Made by a program: the position numbers and the translations under genes
Shown here: piece after piece, positions 14,808 to 64,000 of the stretch
How the letters are laid out: the number at the start of each line of letters is the position of its first letter
Numbering within the stretch: the first letter of the stretch is position 1
The notes under the pieces: model-generated
Told to the model about the DNA's origin: nothing
What the model saw: the letters and a program-made list of their open reading frames with translations, nothing else
Databases searched by the model: none
Origin: a virus
Direction: 5' to 3' (one strand)
Length of the DNA stretch: 64,000 nt
IMG/VR virus record: IMGVR_UViG_3300044510_000078

Positions 14808-16687
14808 TAATTTATGTTAAAAAATGAGTCATTATTGTTAAAAAATAGATAATTTGCCTCTGTAAAAGAAGAAAAATCAGAGATGAGACTACAAGGAGTT
14901 GTTTTAATATAATTGGTTTTTTCAAATTGTCTTACGCCGTTTATCCATATTTGCTCTGAAAAGCCAGTAATATAAATATTGGGAACACTTTCTCCAGCGC
15001 CCAAATACCTTACATACCTTCTGCGAGATTCTCCAGTTATCCTTTCCAAGAACGACAGTAAAGAATATTGTATATTTGTAATTGTATTGACGTTTCCATT
15101 GGGAAGATAAGTAACGTCGGCGGTGAAATCTGGAAGCTCTTCCGCGTAAATCATTACGTATGGATAACTGCCAGAAATGCCAGTTTCATAGTCGTAGTCT
15201 TGAATTAGTTTTTGACCATTTAAAAATAAATCATATCCTGTCAAATTAATTCCAGATATGCCAGTAATTATAATATTCAGACCGCTCTCGATATACTGGG
15301 CTCCAGATGGAAAATAAAGAGGCCCACCATCTTCTATTTGAGTTCCTGAATTGATTAAGATTTTCGACCTACTCCACAAACCGCTATAATTAGTAATCAA
15401 AACATTTTCATTTAGTCTATCGTAAAATAAAAACTCATCATCGTCATAACCAGAAAGTTTGTTAGAGATTAAATTGTAGTCCAAACCACTAATATTGTAA
15501 AGCCCATTGTCGAATACATTAACTCTCTTATATCCAGAAGTATATGCGGAAAAATCTTGCGGGACTTTGATGTTTAAATTATTGACCGGCCTTCTGTATG
15601 TGTATATTTCTAATAAATCTCCTTCTCTCAACTCATTATAAAATGAAAGAAAAATATTAGAATAACTTTCTTTCGTAACATAATCAAAATAAAAATTAAT
15701 TCCTGTGACGGACGGCGCGGTAAATGTATTGCTGCCAGTCAATAGACTTACTCTTTCTTCTACGGAAGAGACTCCAGTTACACCCGAATAAATCCAAACA
15801 GTAGAGTATCCGCCTGTAGGATGCGGAACCTGCTGCTGAACATAGGAATATCCAGTGACGCCACTTATATTAACTGTATCAAATAAATAACCGGTCACTA
15901 TTGGCACAGCGATATTGTCCCCAGAAAAAACAACGTTCTCGTATCCAGAGCAAAAAAGACACTCAATACATCTTTCTTGACCAGTGATTTCTACCGTATC
16001 ATTGAACAAAACAAAATTTTCTATTTCACCAAATAAACCAGTATATCTTTTGTCTGCGTTGTTGTAAAATCCTCCGATATACCATGTATCAGATTTTTTA
16101 TAATTTACTAAAGGGACATTGATATTTTTCAGAACATTTTTTGAGTAGTCGAAAATTCCTACATTAGCTAGATTATCATTAAAAACAGAAAGGGCAACCG
16201 TATTCTTCTCTCTAAGAAGCGTTGAAAAAGAATAAGAGGTCTTGATGCCTCCGGTATTTATATACTCTAAATATAGGTGATTTGCCTGATTCATCCCTAA
16301 ACTAAATCCGCTTAAACCAGTTGGCGACTGCATTGTAGAAAGGATTACCGAAGATTGATTATTTCCAGTAAGATTACAAAAAGAATTATTAAAATCAATA
16401 ACAACGGTAAAATTACTTAAACTGTTATCGTAACCAATCCTTACTATATCTCTACCAGAAAAAATACCAGAATTTATGACCCTAGAAAGATTATAGTCGA
16501 GCGTTTGGACAACGACGCCGGGATTTTTTTCTGAATTAAAAATGCCATTGATTATTTGCTCGCCAGTTGAAAAAAGTTTATTATATACAAATTCTTCCCT
16601 TCCACTTGTGAAATCGTAAATTACAGACAACAGCCCAGTATTGATGGTCTTTATATCTATACAGGTTTTGTAAGTGTCTATATTCAT
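14807..16687 (-). CDS. Tail protein with LamG/ConA-like lectin domain
   Basis: GFSLGMNQANHLYLEY...NTVALSV...WYIGGFY....YTGLFGEIENFVLFND matches the LamG-like pattern; S/T/G-rich remainder. Confidence 0.6.
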   Translation of the reverse strand: MNIDTYKTCIDIKTINTGLLSVIYDFTSGREEFVYNKLFSTGEQIINGIFNSEKNPGVVVQTLDYNLSRVINSGIFSGRDIVRIGYDNSLSNFTVVIDFNNSFCNLTGNNQSSVILSTMQSPTGLSGFSLGMNQANHLYLEYINTGGIKTSYSFSTLLREKNTVALSVFNDNLANVGIFDYSKNVLKNINVPLVNYKKSDTWYIGGFYNNADKRYTGLFGEIENFVLFNDTVEITGQERCIECLFCSGYENVVFSGDNIAVPIVTGYLFDTVNISGVTGYSYVQQQVPHPTGGYSTVWIYSGVTGVSSVEERVSLLTGSNTFTAPSVTGINFYFDYVTKESYSNIFLSFYNELREGDLLEIYTYRRPVNNLNIKVPQDFSAYTSGYKRVNVFDNGLYNISGLDYNLISNKLSGYDDDEFLFYDRLNENVLITNYSGLWSRSKILINSGTQIEDGGPLYFPSGAQYIESGLNIIITGISGINLTGYDLFLNGQKLIQDYDYETGISGSYPYVMIYAEELPDFTADVTYLPNGNVNTITNIQYSLLSFLERITGESRRRYVRYLGAGESVPNIYITGFSEQIWINGVRQFEKTNYIKTTPCSLISDFSSFTEANYLFFNNNDSFFNIN

Positions 16688-16713
16688 CCTTATTCCTTTA
16701 AGGTATTACACTA

Positions 16714-18372
16714 TTAATAACCAAATTGATGTCCCGGCGCTCTAGTAAAAGTAGGAACAGAAACAATAGAACTTGCAAATTTATTATTCGCTCCTTCAAG
16801 CAAAGAAGAAGAAAGACAATTTTCAGACATGACCTCTCTACTAACTTCAAGTGAAAAATTGCCAGAATTTATTCCCGAAGCTGTAAAATAATAAGGCGAA
16901 GCGTTACTTAGGGTGTTTGTCAGTAGATTATTAATTAGTCCATTTAGCCCAGTATAGCATACCACAAAATTGCCTGTATTTTGGGCGTTTGTTTGGATTT
17001 TGATTTTTTCTCTTGTCTTACACTGTAGGTCTTGGACAACAAAATGGCCTTCAATGTTTGCGGCCGGATATAAATTAAACAACCAGCGCTCAGGCGTAAC
17101 CGAAACAGAATAATCAACGCTATGGGCATAGTCGGCGAAGTCTCTATCGCTAAACGAAGCGCTCATTGAAAACGTAGCCTGACCGGTGTTTTCTGATATT
17201 GAAAAAGAAATTGGCAAAGGATTTATAACCCTCGCACCCGTGTTCAATACGTTCGCAACTTGGCTCCCAATTATAAAAGAATACAAATAAGAATGAAATT
17301 GCCCACTAGATAATACTTGATTTTTAAATGCAGTAATTCTTTCTCTTCTATATTTAACTGGACCCCTTACAATGAACTGGCCGTTTAAATTATAAGTTTT
17401 TAGGTCGTTGATTTCATCCCAATTGACGCTTATTTGGGCGTCGAAATAACCAGCAAAATCTCCAGAATTTCCAGATAAAAAAGAAGCTTTCAATGAAGCG
17501 CTATTTTTGCCGCTATCTTCATTGATGGACATTGTATTTAAGTAGCAGTTACCACTACTTATGCCATATTCGGCAAGTTTTTCATAGGGATTGTAAGAAG
17601 ATAGACTTGTTCTTAATTTTTGCAAATTAGAATCTATGGGAGAGCCCAAAAATTCAACATTCAAATCATAAGAATCGAAATCCTGAGTTCTTCCTTCTGT
17701 TACGCTTAGAGTTGCAGTCTCTACGTATGTGTTTGGAGAATTTGAGCCAGTAACAGGATTGTATCTATAAGTTTCATTGATTGAAACAGACCCGGCGAGT
17801 CTATCAATGTTCTCTGTTATTGAAAGCATTATACCGCTACCTACGCCGACAAATACGGGTAAACAACTAGAGTAGGGGTTTTTACCTGTAAACATTTTTA
17901 CAAATTCGATGGCGTTTTCTATTGCCAAAGAATTATTTCTTACACCCTTCGCGGCGATTTTATGAGAAACGGTTATTGTATTGTCTGTATTTTCTAAGAA
18001 AGAATATTCATTCGATACATCTAAAACGCCACTGGGAATATCAAAAGCTTTTATTTTTACAGAATATGGTATGCCCCCAAATCCAATCAAATTATAAGCG
18101 TTGCTTTGTAAGGAAACTTCCTCGACATGACAGCATGGAATTGAAAGATACTCGTGATTCTCGCCGCTAACCAAAAGCTCTTTAAAGTTTTGCTTAAATA
18201 TATCAAGGATGGAATACAAGACTCCCGTTCCAGTTATGTCGCCAGTTATCCATCCGTTCAAATCAACCGACTGAGTAAAACCCCACCTGTTACCATAGTT
18301 GACAGGCTCAAATTGCCTAGAAACAAATGGGGGTGGATTTATTGCTTGATTGTTATACTTTACTATGGCCAT
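16714..18372 (-). CDS. Putative distal tail/baseplate protein
   Basis: 552-aa beta-rich ORF, second gene after the tape measure; position only. Confidence 0.5.
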   Translation of the reverse strand: MAIVKYNNQAINPPPFVSRQFEPVNYGNRWGFTQSVDLNGWITGDITGTGVLYSILDIFKQNFKELLVSGENHEYLSIPCCHVEEVSLQSNAYNLIGFGGIPYSVKIKAFDIPSGVLDVSNEYSFLENTDNTITVSHKIAAKGVRNNSLAIENAIEFVKMFTGKNPYSSCLPVFVGVGSGIMLSITENIDRLAGSVSINETYRYNPVTGSNSPNTYVETATLSVTEGRTQDFDSYDLNVEFLGSPIDSNLQKLRTSLSSYNPYEKLAEYGISSGNCYLNTMSINEDSGKNSASLKASFLSGNSGDFAGYFDAQISVNWDEINDLKTYNLNGQFIVRGPVKYRRERITAFKNQVLSSGQFHSYLYSFIIGSQVANVLNTGARVINPLPISFSISENTGQATFSMSASFSDRDFADYAHSVDYSVSVTPERWLFNLYPAANIEGHFVVQDLQCKTREKIKIQTNAQNTGNFVVCYTGLNGLINNLLTNTLSNASPYYFTASGINSGNFSLEVSREVMSENCLSSSLLEGANNKFASSIVSVPTFTRAPGHQFGY

Positions 18373-41959: not shown

Positions 41960-43351
41960 TTATGCGATGATGTCTTTGACAACATTGCCGTGAACGTCTG
42001 TTAGACGGAATTCGCGGCCATTGTAATTATATACAAGTTGAGTATGGTCAAATCCAAGTAGCGCTAATATTGTAGCGTGCAAGTCGTGAACGTGGACTTT
42101 ATTTTTTACAATTTTAGCTCCAAAATCGTCAGTTTGTCCATAGACAGTTCCCCCCTTTATTCCTCCACCAATTAAAACAGAGCTAAAAGCCTGACTCCAG
42201 TGGCCTCTTCCAAATCCATCTTTCCCACCCTGACCATCTCTTTGAGGAGTTCTTCCAAATTCGCCACTCATAACAATAAGAGTGCTATCAAGTAGTCCTT
42301 TTTCTTTTAAGTCTGCAAGAAGAGCGGCAATTGGCTTATCAACCTGATTCGCCGCGCTTCTTAAAGAGCGAGAAAGTCCATCGTGCGTGTCCCATCCACC
42401 CGTGAACACTTGAACAAATCTTACGCCTCTTTCTACAAGCCTTCTTGCTAGCAGCATTTGCTTGCCTTGAGCCGTGTCTCCAAATTTTTCTCTTGTTTCT
42501 TTTGACTCTTTTGAAATATCAAAGGCGTCGGTCGCTTCAGACTGCATCCTAAATGCGACTTCAAAAGATTCTAGTCTTGCTTCCAAATCGGCCTCTTTTT
42601 GTAGGTTTTGGCCATGAATAGTATTTAGTTTTTGCAGCAAATCTAATTGCTTTCTTTGTTCTTCGATGGAAACATATTGAGATTTAATATTTTCAATCAT
42701 TTTATCTACAGAATTCAAAGTCGTATTTACCGAAGTTCCTTGATAAACGCCCGGTAAGAAAGCTGAACCAAAATTTTGCGTGCCTCCAAGCGGAATCCCC
42801 CCCGGCCTTAAAGAAACAAAGGCTGGCATATTTTGATTAATTCCGCCTAATCCATAACAAACCCATGCGCCCAAACTTGGTCTTACGAATCTGGCTGACC
42901 CAGTATTCATAATCAATGTTGCTAATTCATGGGCTGGAATATCGGTGTTCATTGACCTAATAACAACAGCATCATCAATAAATTTACCAATATTTTCAAA
43001 AACTTCACTAACTTCAATGCCACTTTTACCCATCTTATTAAACTTGAATGGAGAACCACAAGCCAAGCCATTCATTCCAGAACCAAGTTGTGAACCGTCA
43101 AGTTTTATGAGTTCTGGTTTATTATCCCAAGTATCAATATGAGATTGTCCGCCTCCGAAAAAGATATGAATAACCCTCTTGGCTTTGGCAGGAAAATGTG
43201 AAGATTTTGGTGAAAGTCCGTCGGCCTGAGCAAGAAGCGGTGCAAGACCCAACATTCCCATTCCCATACCCATTGTTTGCAAAAATTCCCGGCGAGTTTT
43301 TAGAAAGTCTTTTGCAGATAATTCGTTTTGGTTGCAAAATAATTGTTTCAT
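41960..43351 (-). CDS. DUF1501 family protein with Tat signal
   Basis: TRREFL twin-arginine leader; AKAKRVIHIFFGGGQSHIDTWD; RPSLGAWV.YGLG..NQNMPAFV; LLARRLVERGVRFVQV..GGWDTH; LLDSTLIVMSGEFGRTP; VHVHDLHATILALLGFDH. Likely start 43351. Confidence 0.93.
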   Translation of the reverse strand: MKQLFCNQNELSAKDFLKTRREFLQTMGMGMGMLGLAPLLAQADGLSPKSSHFPAKAKRVIHIFFGGGQSHIDTWDNKPELIKLDGSQLGSGMNGLACGSPFKFNKMGKSGIEVSEVFENIGKFIDDAVVIRSMNTDIPAHELATLIMNTGSARFVRPSLGAWVCYGLGGINQNMPAFVSLRPGGIPLGGTQNFGSAFLPGVYQGTSVNTTLNSVDKMIENIKSQYVSIEEQRKQLDLLQKLNTIHGQNLQKEADLEARLESFEVAFRMQSEATDAFDISKESKETREKFGDTAQGKQMLLARRLVERGVRFVQVFTGGWDTHDGLSRSLRSAANQVDKPIAALLADLKEKGLLDSTLIVMSGEFGRTPQRDGQGGKDGFGRGHWSQAFSSVLIGGGIKGGTVYGQTDDFGAKIVKNKVHVHDLHATILALLGFDHTQLVYNYNGREFRLTDVHGNVVKDIIA

Positions 43352-43364
43352 ATCTTTAAAGATG

Positions 43365-43826
43365 TTACACTCCATTCAAGAAGACAAGTTCTGTGTCTTC
43401 GACGATTGGTTGAGAAATCTCAAATAAGTTATTTACTGCATCCACATCTCCAACCGGAGTTTCTCTCATCACAAAATCTGCCCCAATACCTGATGAACCA
43501 GACGAACCGCTGGTTCCAGACGTTCCATCTACTCCACTGGTTCCCGAACTGCCACTTGAACCAGACGAACCGCTAGAACCTGATGAGCCACTTGAACCAG
43601 ACGAACCGCTGGTTCCGTTTATGCCACTTGTCCCATTTACTCCAGATGAACCACTAGACCCAGAGGTTGAATCTGACCCATTAATTTTATTTGCAAGCTC
43701 AAAAATAGTTACTTTTTTATTTTTTTGGCCAGAATTGGCAGAAACATCAACAATTGGTATCAAATCTGTATCCGCCATCTCAGACGCAGAGATACTTAGA
43801 GATTTGCTTATCTTTAGACCTTGCAT
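43365..43826 (-). CDS. Ser/Gly-repeat virion protein, apparently C-terminally truncated
   Basis: N-terminal DLIPIVDVS..KNKKVTI, (SG[S/T])n run, then RETPVGDVD..NNLFEI....VFLNGV followed by a stop in mid-domain. Confidence 0.6.
   Translation of the reverse strand: MQGLKISKSLSISASEMADTDLIPIVDVSANSGQKNKKVTIFELANKINGSDSTSGSSGSSGVNGTSGINGTSGSSGSSGSSGSSGSSGSSGSSGTSGVDGTSGTSGSSGSSGIGADFVMRETPVGDVDAVNNLFEISQPIVEDTELVFLNGV
43493..43665 (-). repeat. Low-complexity SGSSGTSG coding repeats
   Basis: Recurrent gacgaaccgctggttcc / ccacttgaaccagacgaaccgct units. Confidence 0.85.
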
Positions 43827-52286: not shown

Positions 52287-54137
52287 TTAAATCATCGTGG
52301 GAACAAAGGTTTCCTGTTCTTCAACTTGCGCGTTTTGCATATCAAAATAAATTTTGGTGGCCCAGTTTCCTAGTAAAAGCGCCGTATAATTGTCTTTTCT
52401 TGCCCTGTTTTCAGTAGTTTCTCTATTTAAATGAGCTGGTAAATCAAAAGTCTGCATACCTCTAGCATTAGTTCCGACTTCAATTAAAGCGCACTCTGAT
52501 TTAGTTAAATCTATCATAGAATCCAAATGCTCAATAAAATCCCCAACTGTATTTACATCATCAATAACGCCTTTAATCAAATCGAAATTAATTCCAGAAG
52601 TGATAGCTTTATCGAAGGCCATCGCGCTGCCAGCGCTTTTCGATGCAAACCAAATTCTCTTAAAGTCAATATTTCCCTGTAAATGTTCGTTAGACTTTCT
52701 TATAAATTCATTACTACCAAATACTTGCTTAAATACAATCCTTTTGTGTTCCAGATTGTGCTGGCGTTTGGCTGTTTTTAATTCTTTGGAATAATCTGGT
52801 TCGTCTAGGCTACTCTCAAATGTCATCCATTTTAAATTTAATTTATTTTTAACAAATAATTCATGCTCATTTGCTGCGTCAATAAAGTTATAACCAGCGT
52901 TATCAATGACAATAAAAACAATATTAAAATGTGTCAACAAATAATAAAAATATCTGATATGTTCTTTTAAATCTTTACCATGTTCTCCGTAAGCGTGGAC
53001 TAGAGTTGATTGTTTATTTTCTTCGTCAAGTTCTAAGAGGGCCATACCAAAGTCGTCAGAAGTTGGGCTGTTGGAGAAGCTTGGGTCTATCGCCAAAACA
53101 TATTTTTTGTCAGGAGTTCCCCTTACTAAAGTATGTGGGCTTTGAGAATGTGGGACAGTGCAATTAAACATTTTTTTCGCAGCAAAATATCCTTCACTTC
53201 CGTCTGTAAATCTAGCACAATATTCTCTAAGGAAAACCGCATTAGAAGTGCCTCCAGTTTCAGCTTCTTTAATAATACTTTGATTTATCATGTGGGCGGG
53301 TAGCGCCTCCCAAGATAATTGGGAAATAAAATATTTTGCATTATCTTCTTTTTCTTTTGGTTTATTTATTTTGCTTATCCATTCACAATAGGTTTCGTAA
53401 AGATTTTCAAAAGTGTATGACGCAGAAGAGAGGGCAACAAATCTTGTCGTATTTTCAAAAATGATTCTGTCTTTTTCATTTAACAATCTTTCTTTTATTA
53501 AAGAGTCTTCTATATTTCTAATTCTAATTCTTTCGTCCATATCTTGTGGAGCAGTTAAGAATGGAATAAGAACCGTATCTACAATTTCTTTACTCATTAA
53601 TAAATATTCGTCAATTAACAAAACATTCGCTCGAAATCCACGAATTTTCTCTCCGTTCAATGGAATGGCAACAATAGACCCTTCGTTGATTTTTAATTCA
53701 TGCAAATCATTTCGTTTAATTTTCGCTCCTAAGACTTGAAAAAATAAAGCCGCGTCCCTTCTTTCAGATATTTCTTCAATTTTGTTAAAAATAAAACGCG
53801 AAGTTCTAAATGTTGGCCCAGCTATAAGAATTTTTGAACCGGGATAGAATATACATTGCAAAATACAAAAAACAGCAGCTATAAACGTTTTTCCACAGCC
53901 ACGACCCCAAATACACATACTATAGTTTCTATTTAACATCCCACGTAAAGTAACCTCTTGGAAAGGGGCGATTTTAATACCAGTTAATAGCTCTACAGTA
54001 AAAGTTAAATTATGACGTAAAAATTTAATCAAAGTTAGCCTAGCTTCGTTATCGCTAAGTTCTCCAACTAAAGTATTTAAATAGACTTCATTTAAATCTT
54101 CTAATTCTGTTTCGTATTTTTGAGGACACGTCCACAT
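52287..54137 (-). CDS. terL: Terminase large subunit
   Basis: Walker A IWGRGCGKT, Walker B VLLIDEY, SSAS, FLREYCARF, nuclease VLAIDPS and RKDNYTAL. Likely start 54137 (MWTCPQKY). Confidence 0.92.
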   Translation of the reverse strand: MWTCPQKYETELEDLNEVYLNTLVGELSDNEARLTLIKFLRHNLTFTVELLTGIKIAPFQEVTLRGMLNRNYSMCIWGRGCGKTFIAAVFCILQCIFYPGSKILIAGPTFRTSRFIFNKIEEISERRDAALFFQVLGAKIKRNDLHELKINEGSIVAIPLNGEKIRGFRANVLLIDEYLLMSKEIVDTVLIPFLTAPQDMDERIRIRNIEDSLIKERLLNEKDRIIFENTTRFVALSSASYTFENLYETYCEWISKINKPKEKEDNAKYFISQLSWEALPAHMINQSIIKEAETGGTSNAVFLREYCARFTDGSEGYFAAKKMFNCTVPHSQSPHTLVRGTPDKKYVLAIDPSFSNSPTSDDFGMALLELDEENKQSTLVHAYGEHGKDLKEHIRYFYYLLTHFNIVFIVIDNAGYNFIDAANEHELFVKNKLNLKWMTFESSLDEPDYSKELKTAKRQHNLEHKRIVFKQVFGSNEFIRKSNEHLQGNIDFKRIWFASKSAGSAMAFDKAITSGINFDLIKGVIDDVNTVGDFIEHLDSMIDLTKSECALIEVGTNARGMQTFDLPAHLNRETTENRARKDNYTALLLGNWATKIYFDMQNAQVEEQETFVPTMI

Positions 54138-54139
54138 AC

Positions 54140-55084
54140 TTATAATAAATTTGTATCGTATAATAGCTGTAAATCGGCTTTTTTCCATAAGCCCTTGCTT
54201 GTTAATACAATTTCAGCTATTCTTGCGGCCTCGGTTCTACCATCAACGAATAAAAATTGTATATCTTTAAATTGATAAATTAATTCTCTCATATTTCGTA
54301 GGACAAATTCGGGAGAGGCTTTTACATTAGAATATGCTGGTCTTAGGTATTTGAACCTTGCTACATTATTAAAGTCACTTTCTACGAGAATAAGCATTCC
54401 CGCGCCAACTTCTTCTGCTTTTTTTAATTCTTTTTTAAATCTTTCGAGCCCGCCGCTCATTGTCCCATAAAAATCTGCTAATGATTTTCTTTCTATAAAA
54501 CTATTTTCACAAAGCTCTTTATTATCCAAAGTATAATCTCCAAATTTAAGCGCGGCTTTAATGATTGGTAAATTATTGAAGCAGAGTGGGGCTTGTTCTC
54601 TTGTGTCTATATAAATAGAAGAATTATTTATTGCTGGACTTTTAGGTAATTCTATTTTTTTATATTTTGCGGGAACACCAATCTGTTCGCATAAATCATA
54701 ATAGCTCCCAAATAGTTCGTCGAAATAATTAATAGATGGAATAAGTAATGACCGTAATTCTACTTGACAAGGGGCGAACTTTAATTGTTTTTTTTGTATT
54801 CTTCTTTCCAGTAAATTTTTACAATATGTTTTTGCAATTTCTTTATCTTGCTTTCTAAGCCAGTAGCGCAAGTTATTTTTATTGTTAAAATCATCGTTAA
54901 AATATTGGTCTTTAGTTTTGAAAGCGATAATTTTTTTATCATGTAAATCATATCTCGGAAAGTAAGTTTGATAGTAAGAAACAATCCTATGTTTGTGGAC
55001 TCTTATATGTTTGTGTAAAGATTCTTCATTTGTAAATACCTCTTTACAAATTTGACAAACTAGAGTTGTGCATACATTATCCAT
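54140..55084 (-). CDS. C2H2 zinc-finger + ERCC4/XPF-like nuclease
   Basis: CQICKEVF..EESLHKHIRVH; IYIDTREQ, GDYTL, FIERKSLADF. Confidence 0.85.
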   Translation of the reverse strand: MDNVCTTLVCQICKEVFTNEESLHKHIRVHKHRIVSYYQTYFPRYDLHDKKIIAFKTKDQYFNDDFNNKNNLRYWLRKQDKEIAKTYCKNLLERRIQKKQLKFAPCQVELRSLLIPSINYFDELFGSYYDLCEQIGVPAKYKKIELPKSPAINNSSIYIDTREQAPLCFNNLPIIKAALKFGDYTLDNKELCENSFIERKSLADFYGTMSGGLERFKKELKKAEEVGAGMLILVESDFNNVARFKYLRPAYSNVKASPEFVLRNMRELIYQFKDIQFLFVDGRTEAARIAEIVLTSKGLWKKADLQLLYDTNLL

Positions 55085-62225: not shown

Positions 62226-62537
62226 CTAAAGGAATTACACTTCTTTTTAAATAAAATTTTTTATATTTTTTGATGAGATTCTTTTATTTATCTAAACAGG
62301 ACTAATTTTCGGTGGGGGGGAGACAGTATAAGGGATAATGTTTTTAGTTTTGGATTTTTTTATTTTTGTTTGTTTGGGTTTTGGAGGTTTGGGGAGACTG
62401 AACACAACCACCCTACTCGGTTTTTTGAACTGGATTTTCGTAATTTTTTCAAAAATAGGCATACCCCCCCCCGATGTAGTGGTTTGAATTTTAGACTGCT
62501 ACAATAGGTTGTGTTATCTTTTTTTAATAAAAATCTG

Positions 62538-62566
62538 TTGACTTTTCTGCCGTCATAGGCTAATCT
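62538..62566 (+). promoter_or_regulatory. sigma70 early promoter TTGACT-17-TAATCT
   Basis: A/T-tract upstream; ATG 6 nt after the -10. Confidence 0.75.
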
Positions 62567-62572
62567 TCTCAC

Positions 62573-62776
62573 ATGGAAAAGAAAGTCATTCAATACATCG
62601 TCAGAGAGTCCTACGGAAACTCCCTCGAATACATCGCCAATCCTGCTGACGCTCGCCTTGTCGAGCTGCTTACGGGCAGGAAAACCATCAACTCTGTCAT
62701 CCGCGAGCTGATTCGTGACCTGAGTGGCGGACGTATCCAGTTTGAGGAAGTCTGGTATCGGCACGCGAACAACTAA
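62573..62776 (+). CDS. Small early protein (67 aa)
   Basis: Own promoter; opposite strand to the late region. Confidence 0.7.
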   Translation: MEKKVIQYIVRESYGNSLEYIANPADARLVELLTGRKTINSVIRELIRDLSGGRIQFEEVWYRHANN

Positions 62777-62892
62777 GCGCGTCTAAGACCTTCTCTGGCA
62801 AGGAGATAGGTCGTCAAGGGGCGGACGCTCTAAGGCTTTAGCTTTCAAGGGTTTGGGACTTAATAAATCTCATGTTTTTTTGAAAATTGTTC

Positions 62893-62920
62893 TTGCATTT
62901 AGCGGAAAACCTACTACAAT
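62893..62920 (+). promoter_or_regulatory. sigma70 early promoter TTGCAT-16-TACAAT
   Basis: ATG at 62933. Confidence 0.6.
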
Positions 62921-62932
62921 TTCCCCTAGAAA

Positions 62933-63130
62933 ATGAAAAACGAAATGAATCCAAATTCCAATCCTCAGTCTCCCTCAAATCCAGTCCCGGTTGTCAAGAC
63001 CGATGCTAACCAGTTTTCCAGCCTGTTCGACGACCCGAAGTTCAGGGCGTCGTATATCGTGATGGAAAAGCGTCGCGGAAGATTGCGTGTCAGGGCTTGG
63101 CAACGTCGCAATGGACACGACTGGCCGTAA
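62933..63130 (+). CDS. Small early protein (65 aa)
   Basis: Own promoter; its stop TAA lies inside a 27-bp site. Confidence 0.65.
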   Translation: MKNEMNPNSNPQSPSNPVPVVKTDANQFSSLFDDPKFRASYIVMEKRRGRLRVRAWQRRNGHDWP

Positions 63131-63226
63131 TCGCTTGAGTATCAAAGACTTGCGTTTGCGCCCGTCGCTTTTGTAAGTGTTTGCATATCAGGGTTTTGTA
63201 GCTTCACAAAAAATGTAAAATTTTTC

Positions 63227-63255
63227 TTGCTTTTTTGGGTAAATTACACAATAAT
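63227..63255 (+). promoter_or_regulatory. Possible sigma70 early promoter TTGCTT-17-AATAAT
   Basis: Imperfect -10; ATG 6 nt later at 63262; same position relative to the site pair as in the other units. Confidence 0.45.
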
Positions 63256-63261
63256 TTAGCC

Positions 63262-63567
63262 ATGAAAACAAACACGACATTCAAAGAGATGAACACAAAC
63301 CACTATGCCGTCGCTGACCCTGCTATGGTGGGCGCACTTGGAGCGTTGGTTGACGCTTACAATGATGAACTCAAAGCGTTGGAAGGCAGGTTTAATGCTC
63401 GCGCCAACGATATTCTTGTCAACGCCATTGTTCCGCGCAGGGAAGGAACTTGCAAGAAAGCAACCATTTTGAACGTAGCAGCAATCCACGGCGACACCGT
63501 TTTCGTGACAACCGCTGATGCCCGTGGAGTTCTTACAGAAGCCTATATCCATGCTGGCATAGAGTAG
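63262..63567 (+). CDS. Small early protein (101 aa; likely start 63262)
   Basis: MKTNTTFKEMNTNHYAVADP...; helix then small beta-barrel-like C-terminus. Confidence 0.65.
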   Translation: MKTNTTFKEMNTNHYAVADPAMVGALGALVDAYNDELKALEGRFNARANDILVNAIVPRREGTCKKATILNVAAIHGDTVFVTTADARGVLTEAYIHAGIE

Positions 63568-63692
63568 AGGGAAACATCAGTCTTTTACGTAACCCCCTTA
63601 ATCCCGAATGGGTTACGTGGCGGCTGGGCGCTTTTATAAACGCTTCTGCATTAGGGTGTTACATATATGAAGACTTTACTTTAGAAAAAGAT

Positions 63693-63721
63693 TTGACAAT
63701 TCGCGCTTCTAGTGATAGACT
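63693..63721 (+). promoter_or_regulatory. sigma70 early promoter TTGACA-17-TAGACT
   Basis: ATG at 63731. Confidence 0.75.
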
Positions 63722-63730
63722 TCTCCAATC

Positions 63731-63934
63731 ATGCGTTGCGAAGATTATCCTTGCTGTGGTCACGAGGACGGCGGTTGCCCGAACTCTGACGGAACCTTTA
63801 ACTGCTGCACTTGCGGAGCCAAGCTCCCAATTGATAGCACTAGCGCGATGTGCCGTCGTTGCCATCGTGAGATGGACAGGCGAGAGGACGGTTATGAGAT
63901 GGGCGGCGATTATGATTACTCGATGAACTACTAA
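63731..63934 (+). CDS. Cys-rich small early protein (RCEDxPCC motif + zinc ribbon)
   Basis: MRCEDYPCCGHEDGGCP...CCTCGAKL......CRRCH; its stop TAA lies inside a 27-bp site. Confidence 0.7.
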   Translation: MRCEDYPCCGHEDGGCPNSDGTFNCCTCGAKLPIDSTSAMCRRCHREMDRREDGYEMGGDYDYSMNY

Positions 63935-64000
63935 ACCCTTCGGGAATAAGTAGTTACAGGCCCGCCCGCCGCCCTTGTAAGTCCTTGATATTCAACGTAA

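Follow-up and report, generated by a model that had tools for sequence, protein, structure and literature searches.

The 64,000-nucleotide stretch analysed here (IMG/VR record IMGVR_UViG_3300044510_000078), called the window in the following, comes from a large tailed phage (terminase, tail-fibre and tape-measure genes are present), and its right end carries the beginning of an array of small early genes separated by pairs of palindromic sites. Four such units had been noted between 62476 and 64000 in a preliminary description of the window, and all four were found as described: a small open reading frame (ORF) on the plus strand is followed by a left (L) dyad site, a GC-rich spacer, a right (R) dyad site, A/T-rich DNA and a promoter (Table 1). 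The L and R sites of these units start 46-47 base pairs (bp) apart, the spacers, if 25 bp are assigned to each site, measure 21-22 bp, and the A/T-rich DNA between the end of R and the -35 box is 28-37 bp long. In two of the four units (63128 and 63932) the L site opens with the TAA stop codon of the ORF, as had been stated, and the same holds for 5 of 11 units in the extended array. Searches of the early ORFs against Pfam and PHROGs revealed only ORFans and no match to a DNA-binding family. For ORF 1, a confident small beta-beta-alpha-alpha-beta fold was modelled with AlphaFold, for which Foldseek returned no match in the PDB with E below 0.3; the sole Pfam match of this protein (0.17) was to a winged-helix domain. 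No relative of ORF 3 was found in IMG/VR with a protein query, and ORF 4 showed 75% identity to a cassette located at another position in a related phage (the relative).

Table 1. Features of the four early units and of the late genes mentioned in the text (window coordinates; site scores are matches to the 25-bp consensus).
Feature	Position	Strand	Remarks
Promoter 1, TTGACT-N17-TAATCT	62538-62566	+	ATG 6 nt downstream; no dyad element upstream
Early ORF 1, 67 amino acids	62573-62776	+	first array gene in the relative too, 55% identity
L1 dyad site	62784-62808		16/25
GC-rich spacer 1	62809-62830		G-rich on plus strand
R1 dyad site	62831-62855		15/25
Promoter 2, TTGCAT-N16-TACAAT	62893-62920	+	ATG 12 nt downstream
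Early ORF 2, 65 amino acids	62933-63130	+	TAA stop is first triplet of L2
L2 dyad site	63128-63152		18/25; right half TATCAAAGACTTG is an exact IHF consensus
GC-rich spacer 2	63153-63173		
R2 dyad site	63174-63198		16/25; includes exact IHF consensus TATCAGGGTTTTG
Promoter 3, TTGCTT-N17-AATAAT	63227-63255	+	ATG 6 nt downstream
Early ORF 3, 101 amino acids	63262-63567	+	also called as a gene in L026
L3 dyad site	63590-63615		one extra base; also a good 9-11-bp hairpin
GC-rich spacer 3	63616-63636		G-rich on plus strand
R3 dyad site	63637-63661		
Promoter 4, TTGACA-N17-TAGACT with TG extension	63693-63721	+	ATG 9 nt downstream
Early ORF 4, 67 amino acids, Cys-rich	63731-63934	+	TAA stop is first triplet of L4
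L4 dyad site	63932-63956		loose pattern TAAn3CTTn7AAGn3TTA with 0 mismatches
GC-rich spacer 4	63957-63977		C-rich on plus strand, opposite to spacers 1 and 3
R4 dyad site	63978-64000, clipped by window end		19/25; left half is an exact IHF consensus on minus strand; array goes on in L031
Large terminase	52287-54188	-	about 27% identity to terminases of cultured phages
Tape-measure protein, 2811 amino acids	20123-28558		
DUF1501-type gene, head module	41960-43375	-	54-60% identity to Verrucomicrobiota genes

Extent of the array and arrangement of its promoters

A Logan contig (L026/L031) that is 100% identical to window positions 62464-64000 adds 18.4 kb beyond the window (window-equivalent coordinate = L031 coordinate + 62463), which brings the phage sequence examined to 82 kb of a roughly 198-kb genome. 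Contigs L027, L030 and L032 from other samples are 99.9-100% identical to the window phage and contained no population variants; one of them, L030, passes through position 62464 unbroken. The region gave no blastn match among GenBank phages, and an exact 40-mer taken from it gave none in IMG/VR. Up to about 62470 the window has a GC content of 31-45% (mostly 33-38%), and beyond this point one of 46-48%.

Comparison of the sites allowed the repeated element to be refined to the 25-bp palindrome TAAGTCCTTGATAATCAAGGACTTA, which was scored in the array region (62464-82352, 19.9 kb) and in the late-gene region (1-62463). Thirteen L/R pairs were present from 62784 to about 68855, the two sites of a pair starting 41-48 bp (mostly 46-47 bp) apart and enclosing a GC-rich spacer, and single sites extended to window-equivalent position 80408. 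Sites with at least 16 of 25 matches numbered 31 in the array compared with 0.97 expected from dinucleotide shuffles, and those with at least 18 matches numbered 15 compared with 0.03 expected, while the 62.4-kb late region contained 8 of the former (6.6 expected) and none of the latter. Further copies thus exist beyond the window, and at the higher threshold the sites occur in the array only. The looser pattern TAAn3CTTn7AAGn3TTA, with up to 3 mismatches, matched the whole AT-rich window 112 times versus 101 expected, showing no enrichment because it is too loose. In a matrix of 27 sites, A2, T9 and A17 were found in all 27 and T24 in 26; position 1 was a pyrimidine and position 25 a purine in 25 of 27 each, and position 18 was A or G. 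TTGA occupied positions 8-11 and TCAA positions 15-18, and the best copies read TTGAT-A-ATCAA at their centre, so that the freely variable centre of the preliminary description could not be upheld. The GC spacers were G-rich on the plus strand in some units and C-rich in others.

The array promoters conform to TTGnnn-N16-17-(TGn)TAnnnT; the predicted sigma70 promoters were accordingly recovered, with the amendment that most of them have an extended -10 box (TGnTAnnnT) and that the ATG follows 6-12 nt past this box. Owing to this short distance the mRNAs are probably leaderless, and no room is left for a Shine-Dalgarno sequence. Almost every cassette has its own promoter. The order of GC block, R site, A/T tract and -35 box was also kept at the leftward promoters (window-equivalent 70795, 76752, 78448 and 80408), and since the order is the same on both strands, the element belongs to the downstream promoter and not to the upstream gene. 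In most units the distance from the centre of the R site to the -35 hexamer was 20, 29-30, 40-41 or 50-52 bp, a phasing for which Rayleigh R reached 0.61-0.67 at periods of 10.5-11.2 bp (23 units, p about 2e-4 to 3e-5), values that are inflated by the common ancestry of the module formed by the R site and the adjoining UP sequence (R+UP module).

Half-site sequence and candidate binding proteins

The halves of one and the same site formed 6.3 of 12 possible Watson-Crick pairs on average, compared with 6.5 for halves of different sites (27 sites, permutation p 0.6-0.87), and only about half of the mirrored positions were able to pair. The right half of L and the left half of R likewise showed no excess pairing across the spacer; an attenuator-like pairing of these two halves, attractive in two units, failed the permutation test. 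RNA folds of four intergenic units had no structure in common (z-scores from -0.1 to -1.8), and a consensus scan of the spacers of the window early units found no intrinsic terminator, that is, no GC hairpin followed by a U-tract. The lack of covariation between the halves argues that the palindromes are sequence-specific double-stranded DNA sites rather than hairpins. Their palindromic look arises because the two half-sites each follow one consensus, which is, as far as can be read from the sequence, the signature of a protein that binds double-stranded DNA with two-fold symmetry.

The consensus followed by each half-site in the 27-site matrix is (W)ATCAR-N4-TTR, i.e. the IHF consensus WATCARnnnnTTR, as C16, A17, A/G18, T23, T24 and R25 are found together with their mirror image. 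Canonical IHF sites contain two AA steps 9 bp apart at the points of proline intercalation (PMC1874591), and here T8T9 (25-27 of 27 sites) and A17A18 (19-27 of 27) are separated by the same 9 bp. Exact copies of WATCARNNNNTTR were enriched about 9-fold in the array (16 versus 1.8 expected, maximum of 5 in 20 shuffles), the great majority of them within dyad sites, and were similarly frequent in the array of the relative (14 versus 1.9 expected), compared with 11 versus 10.6 expected in the late region. The better half was the right one in L sites and the left one in R sites, with the TTR ends pointing to the GC spacer. The sites share with known IHF sites and IHF-assisted promoters (WATCARnnnnTTR; PMC1874591) the consensus letters, the degeneracies and the 9-bp kink spacing, as well as an A/T-rich flank away from TTR (in the R sites) and a location upstream of the promoter on one helical face. 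Known IHF sites are asymmetric and mostly occur singly, whereas here the consensus is present in both halves, so that the site is symmetrised, and the sites form convergent pairs at a fixed distance of 46-47 bp around a GC block that are repeated at least 13 times in one array. Moreover, the sites are predictions from sequence and the host is probably not a proteobacterium.

The sole host clue obtained was the DUF1501-type gene of the head module, whose nearest genes are those of Limisphaerales, Pedosphaera and Chthoniobacter, and which points to Verrucomicrobiota as the probable host of the phage. Four genomes of this candidate host clade each contained two genes of the HU/IHF (DNABII) family, and in the two classified Limisphaerales/Pedosphaera genomes one of the two was IHF-like and the other HU-like. 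The product of a single IHF-like gene would form homodimers, and these would be in keeping with symmetric sites.

Cassette order in a related phage and possible roles of the paired sites

The relative, represented by IMG/VR contig 3300020193_000059 (L001) and a metagenome contig in L034, provides 14 kb of early array for comparison. Proteins common to the two phages are 55-88% identical, and the array of the relative shows the same jump in GC content (from 32% to about 45%) and contains 30 sites with at least 16 of 25 matches (0.7 expected) and 20 with at least 18 (0.03 expected). The genes flanking the array are syntenic between the two phages; the cassettes are not. In the relative the homologues of window genes 2 and 4 follow those of genes 7 and 9, four copies of gene 7 and two of gene 9 are found, 4289, GP88, 6063 and 6700 stand in a permuted order, and several cassettes are present in one phage only. 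Blocks of nucleotide homology begin at the -35 box (or where R starts) and reach the stop codon, which places the breakpoints within the elements. Recent mosaics inside the relative begin with the initial base of R or stop immediately ahead of the -35 box, and join differing left and right contexts across an identical R+UP stretch of 43 bp; junctions within such a stretch are what homologous exchange gives. The R sites resemble one another at their centres, which in the relative all read GACTATC. A tyrosine recombinase was not detected among 89 ORFs scanned in the 82 kb examined, with about 115 kb of the genome unseen.

The closest described concept is the cassette carrying a promoter-early stem-loop (PeSL) element of T4-type phages (Arbiol et al. 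2010, PMC2839356; Comeau et al. 2014, PMC4122927). This short composite element, which includes an early promoter, recurs between small early genes that are ORFans. Related phages differ at PeSL elements by insertions, deletions, replacements and displacements, and exchange is thought to be driven by repeat homology (PMC2839356, PMC4122927). Here, too, a repeated intergenic A/T-rich region with a sigma70-like early promoter flanks variable ORFans. The array differs from the PeSL system in its two sequence-conserved 25-bp palindromes around a GC block, its IHF-type consensus, its helical phasing and fixed paired geometry and its lack of a stem-loop terminator; a PeSL element carries a Shine-Dalgarno sequence and the start codon at its 3' end, whereas no Shine-Dalgarno sequence is present here, and the phage, to judge from its tape measure and its terminase, is not T4-like. 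Integron attC sites resemble the sites of the array in that they are imperfect palindromes directly after or overlapping a stop codon and accompany small single-gene cassettes in variable order. However, in attC the fold is conserved and the sequence free, while the sites of the array have a sequence consensus, about 50% pairing and no covariation; integron cassettes are promoterless and served by one common promoter, whereas here the sites are tied to the downstream promoter and almost every cassette is self-expressed, and no integrase was found in the 82 kb examined. In the stoperators of mycobacteriophages and the 17-bp palindromes of cluster O, many copies of a short conserved protein-binding motif likewise lie in intergenic gaps of one genome region, as single short sites bound by a phage repressor. 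To our knowledge these sites are unpaired and have no GC block, no phasing to a promoter of each gene and no match to the IHF consensus.

The explanation that we favour, although we would put its chances at about even, is that a paired IHF-type architectural module lies upstream of each promoter and serves at the same time as portable homology for shuffling, as PeSL elements do. The module would consist of two dyad-symmetric 25-bp predicted sites for a dimeric bending protein of the HU/IHF (DNABII) type, at a distance of 46-47 bp from each other and with a stiff GC-rich block in between, and would lie in front of each strong early promoter for the host RNA polymerase. A pre-existing protein of the host, or possibly one of the phage, would bind and introduce two sharp bends, and the spacing of about 4.4 helical turns would direct these to roughly opposite sides, giving an S-shaped path. 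Upstream DNA shaped in this way may stimulate each single-gene, probably leaderless unit or insulate it from the adjacent unit. As copies of it stand between all cassettes, the module would also supply the homology by which cassettes of promoter and ORF are duplicated, lost and reordered. If this is true, large uncultured freshwater phages, probably growing on Verrucomicrobiota, would run their early programme from dozens of one-gene, probably leaderless units, each preceded by a standard bending module that makes use of a nucleoid protein. The array would then provide a clear example from nature in which symmetrised, paired IHF-type sites serve as a portable part of promoters, would account for the reshuffling of early (anti-host) genes without a recombinase, and would offer a compact module for promoter insulation or activation as well as a handle for locating early regions and promoters in uncultured phage genomes.

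Several observations weigh against a bending module of this kind. No HU/IHF gene was detected in the 82 kb of the phage or in the fragments of the relative, and a verrucomicrobial DNABII profile found no match in six-frame translations of this DNA. The verrucomicrobial IHF-like proteins score 79 bits to IHF-beta, which is below the NCBIfam cut-off, and the host assignment itself rests on one auxiliary gene. A strict double-IHF palindrome had no match in the four Verrucomicrobiota genomes, so that use of palindromic sites by the host protein is without support there. Positions 4-7 (GTCC) of the site are moderately conserved and are not required by the IHF consensus of Escherichia coli. With respect to the promoters, R-to-(-35) distances of 33, 44 and 75 bp are out of phase, the shared ancestry mentioned above inflates the phasing statistic, and the R site at window-equivalent position 65695 overlaps a start codon and is followed by no promoter. 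This last R-type site (L031 3199-3260, window-equivalent about 65662-65723) reads GTATG in place of GTAAG, and its ATG starts the next gene (L031 3233-3517).

As one of two possibilities, the preliminary description had named paired operators for a dimeric regulator, and the dyad consensus, the lack of covariation, the promoter polarity on both strands and the helical phasing make operators the better-fitting of the two. The regulator need not be of the DNABII type: a phage-encoded helix-turn-helix or ribbon-helix-helix protein or one with a new fold, made early or delivered with the virion, might turn all units of the array off or on together, the resemblance to the IHF consensus being coincidental. 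Dyad symmetry, absence of covariation, polarity and phasing suit any dimeric DNA binder, and the information carried by positions 4-7 (GTCC/GGAC) beyond the IHF consensus, the lack of a DNABII gene in the phage DNA examined and the lack of the palindrome in the four candidate host-clade genomes would be in line with such a regulator, as would the first array gene, which is conserved, lacks a dyad in front of its promoter and encodes a fold without a PDB match. Even so, we regard this as rather unlikely, because four conserved blocks about 7 bp apart over 25 bp are ill-suited to a protein that reads successive major grooves on one face, Y1, R25, A/G18 and the 9-bp steps agree with the IHF consensus in its details, exact copies of which are enriched about 9-fold, and no early protein matched a DNA-binding family. 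The other possibility of the preliminary description, integron-like shuffling of early-gene cassettes by a tyrosine recombinase, holds as an evolutionary pattern, given the scrambled gene order, the duplicated and unique cassettes and the position of the breakpoints within the elements; as a mechanism it finds no support in the sequence examined.

The recombinase would draw on that same pattern, on a 9-7-9 geometry that resembles recombinase core sites and on the similar, in the relative identical, centres of the R sites; in addition, IHF-type bends are known accessory elements of recombination complexes. We nevertheless consider site-specific recombination at these sites very unlikely: no recombinase was encountered in the part of the genome examined, the centres of the L sites differ from one another and would block strand exchange, the cassettes bring their own promoters, it is the sequence and not the fold that is conserved, recombination has no use for a polarity and phasing tied to promoters, and the mosaic junctions fall anywhere in the 43-bp identical stretch, as homologous exchange predicts. 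Still another reading takes the palindromes as RNA elements, i.e. 3' hairpins that terminate or stabilise each monocistronic early transcript. They do stand directly after stop codons, L1, L3 and L4 fold as good hairpins, and in one unit (L031 2085-2130) an unrelated GCCTC/GAGGC hairpin replaces the L site. Against this, compensatory change is absent at the mirrored positions, of which a mean of 6.3 in 12 pair, fold z-scores are weak, U-tracts and terminators were not found in these units, the GC spacers are G-rich or C-rich on the RNA strand, and the half facing the spacer is always the better conserved one regardless of the direction of transcription, so that we judge the hairpin reading to be highly improbable. 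A bolder variant of the bending module, which we hold to be quite improbable, would assign synapsis to the paired symmetric IHF-type sites within a system dedicated to the exchange of early genes, in which two sharply bent sites and a GC clamp hold two elements together while self-expressing leaderless cassettes are excised, duplicated and re-inserted far above what plain homology gives. If true, this would be an integron-like diversity generator for anti-host genes in which a host bending protein replaces the integrase-specific fold.

Other features of the array and its surroundings

The step in base composition at the start of the array was seen in both phages: GC content rises from about 33% to 44-50% and stays high over most of the array (L031 1-19889; L001/L034), and the late regions of both phages have 32-36% GC. 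A non-coding gap of 350 bp (62226-62572) precedes the first early gene, and two blocks in it, GGGAGACTGAACACAACC (about 62393-62410) and TTTTTTCAAAAATAGGCATACCCCCC (about 62445-62470), are kept in the relative. The gap also contains an inverted repeat made up of a poly-G run (62313-62320) and a poly-C run (62465-62474), and one Logan assembly breaks exactly at 62464 while another reads through. It is possible that the gap is a control region, encodes a small RNA or contains a replication or packaging signal. Among the late genes, an ORF on the minus strand (54140-55084) that overlaps the end of the large terminase gene codes for a C2H2 zinc finger and an ERCC4 nuclease domain.

A pattern search of IMG/VR with CCCTT-N7-AAGTAGTTACA returned 24 loci, and all but the relative were chance matches or carried a different motif. 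One AT-rich phage unrelated to the window phage (L002, IMG/VR 3300028198_000016; also L016 and L024) has five TAAnnnnTTG-N4-CAAnnnnTTA sites in a 390-bp non-coding gap (L002 12170-12560) together with GTTACAGACAATCGACCG repeats; its motif is distinct because the TT/AA steps are 8 bp apart and not 9.

A tRNA-Met gene (L031 1754-1831, window-equivalent 64217-64294) is located within the array of cassettes and replaces the left half of an L site with its 3' end, and four further tRNA genes (His, Asp, Lys and Gln) are located on the minus strand within L031 18082-19785. In L031 9449-10286 an ORF of 146 amino acids with a weak match to TnsA-like endonucleases overlaps an opposite-strand ORF of 137 amino acids that contains only C-terminal pieces of a poly(A) polymerase/CCA-adding enzyme, and this arrangement may represent a homing-type insertion in a broken nucleotidyltransferase gene. 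This locus is adjoined by RNA ligase genes that belong to two families (L031 10355-11440 and 12799-13815). Two GP88-family (PF17338) paralogues, L031 4619-5248 on the plus and 16610-17239 on the minus strand, face each other 11 kb apart with about 68% DNA identity, and the former encodes the best-conserved protein of the array (88% identity to that of the relative).

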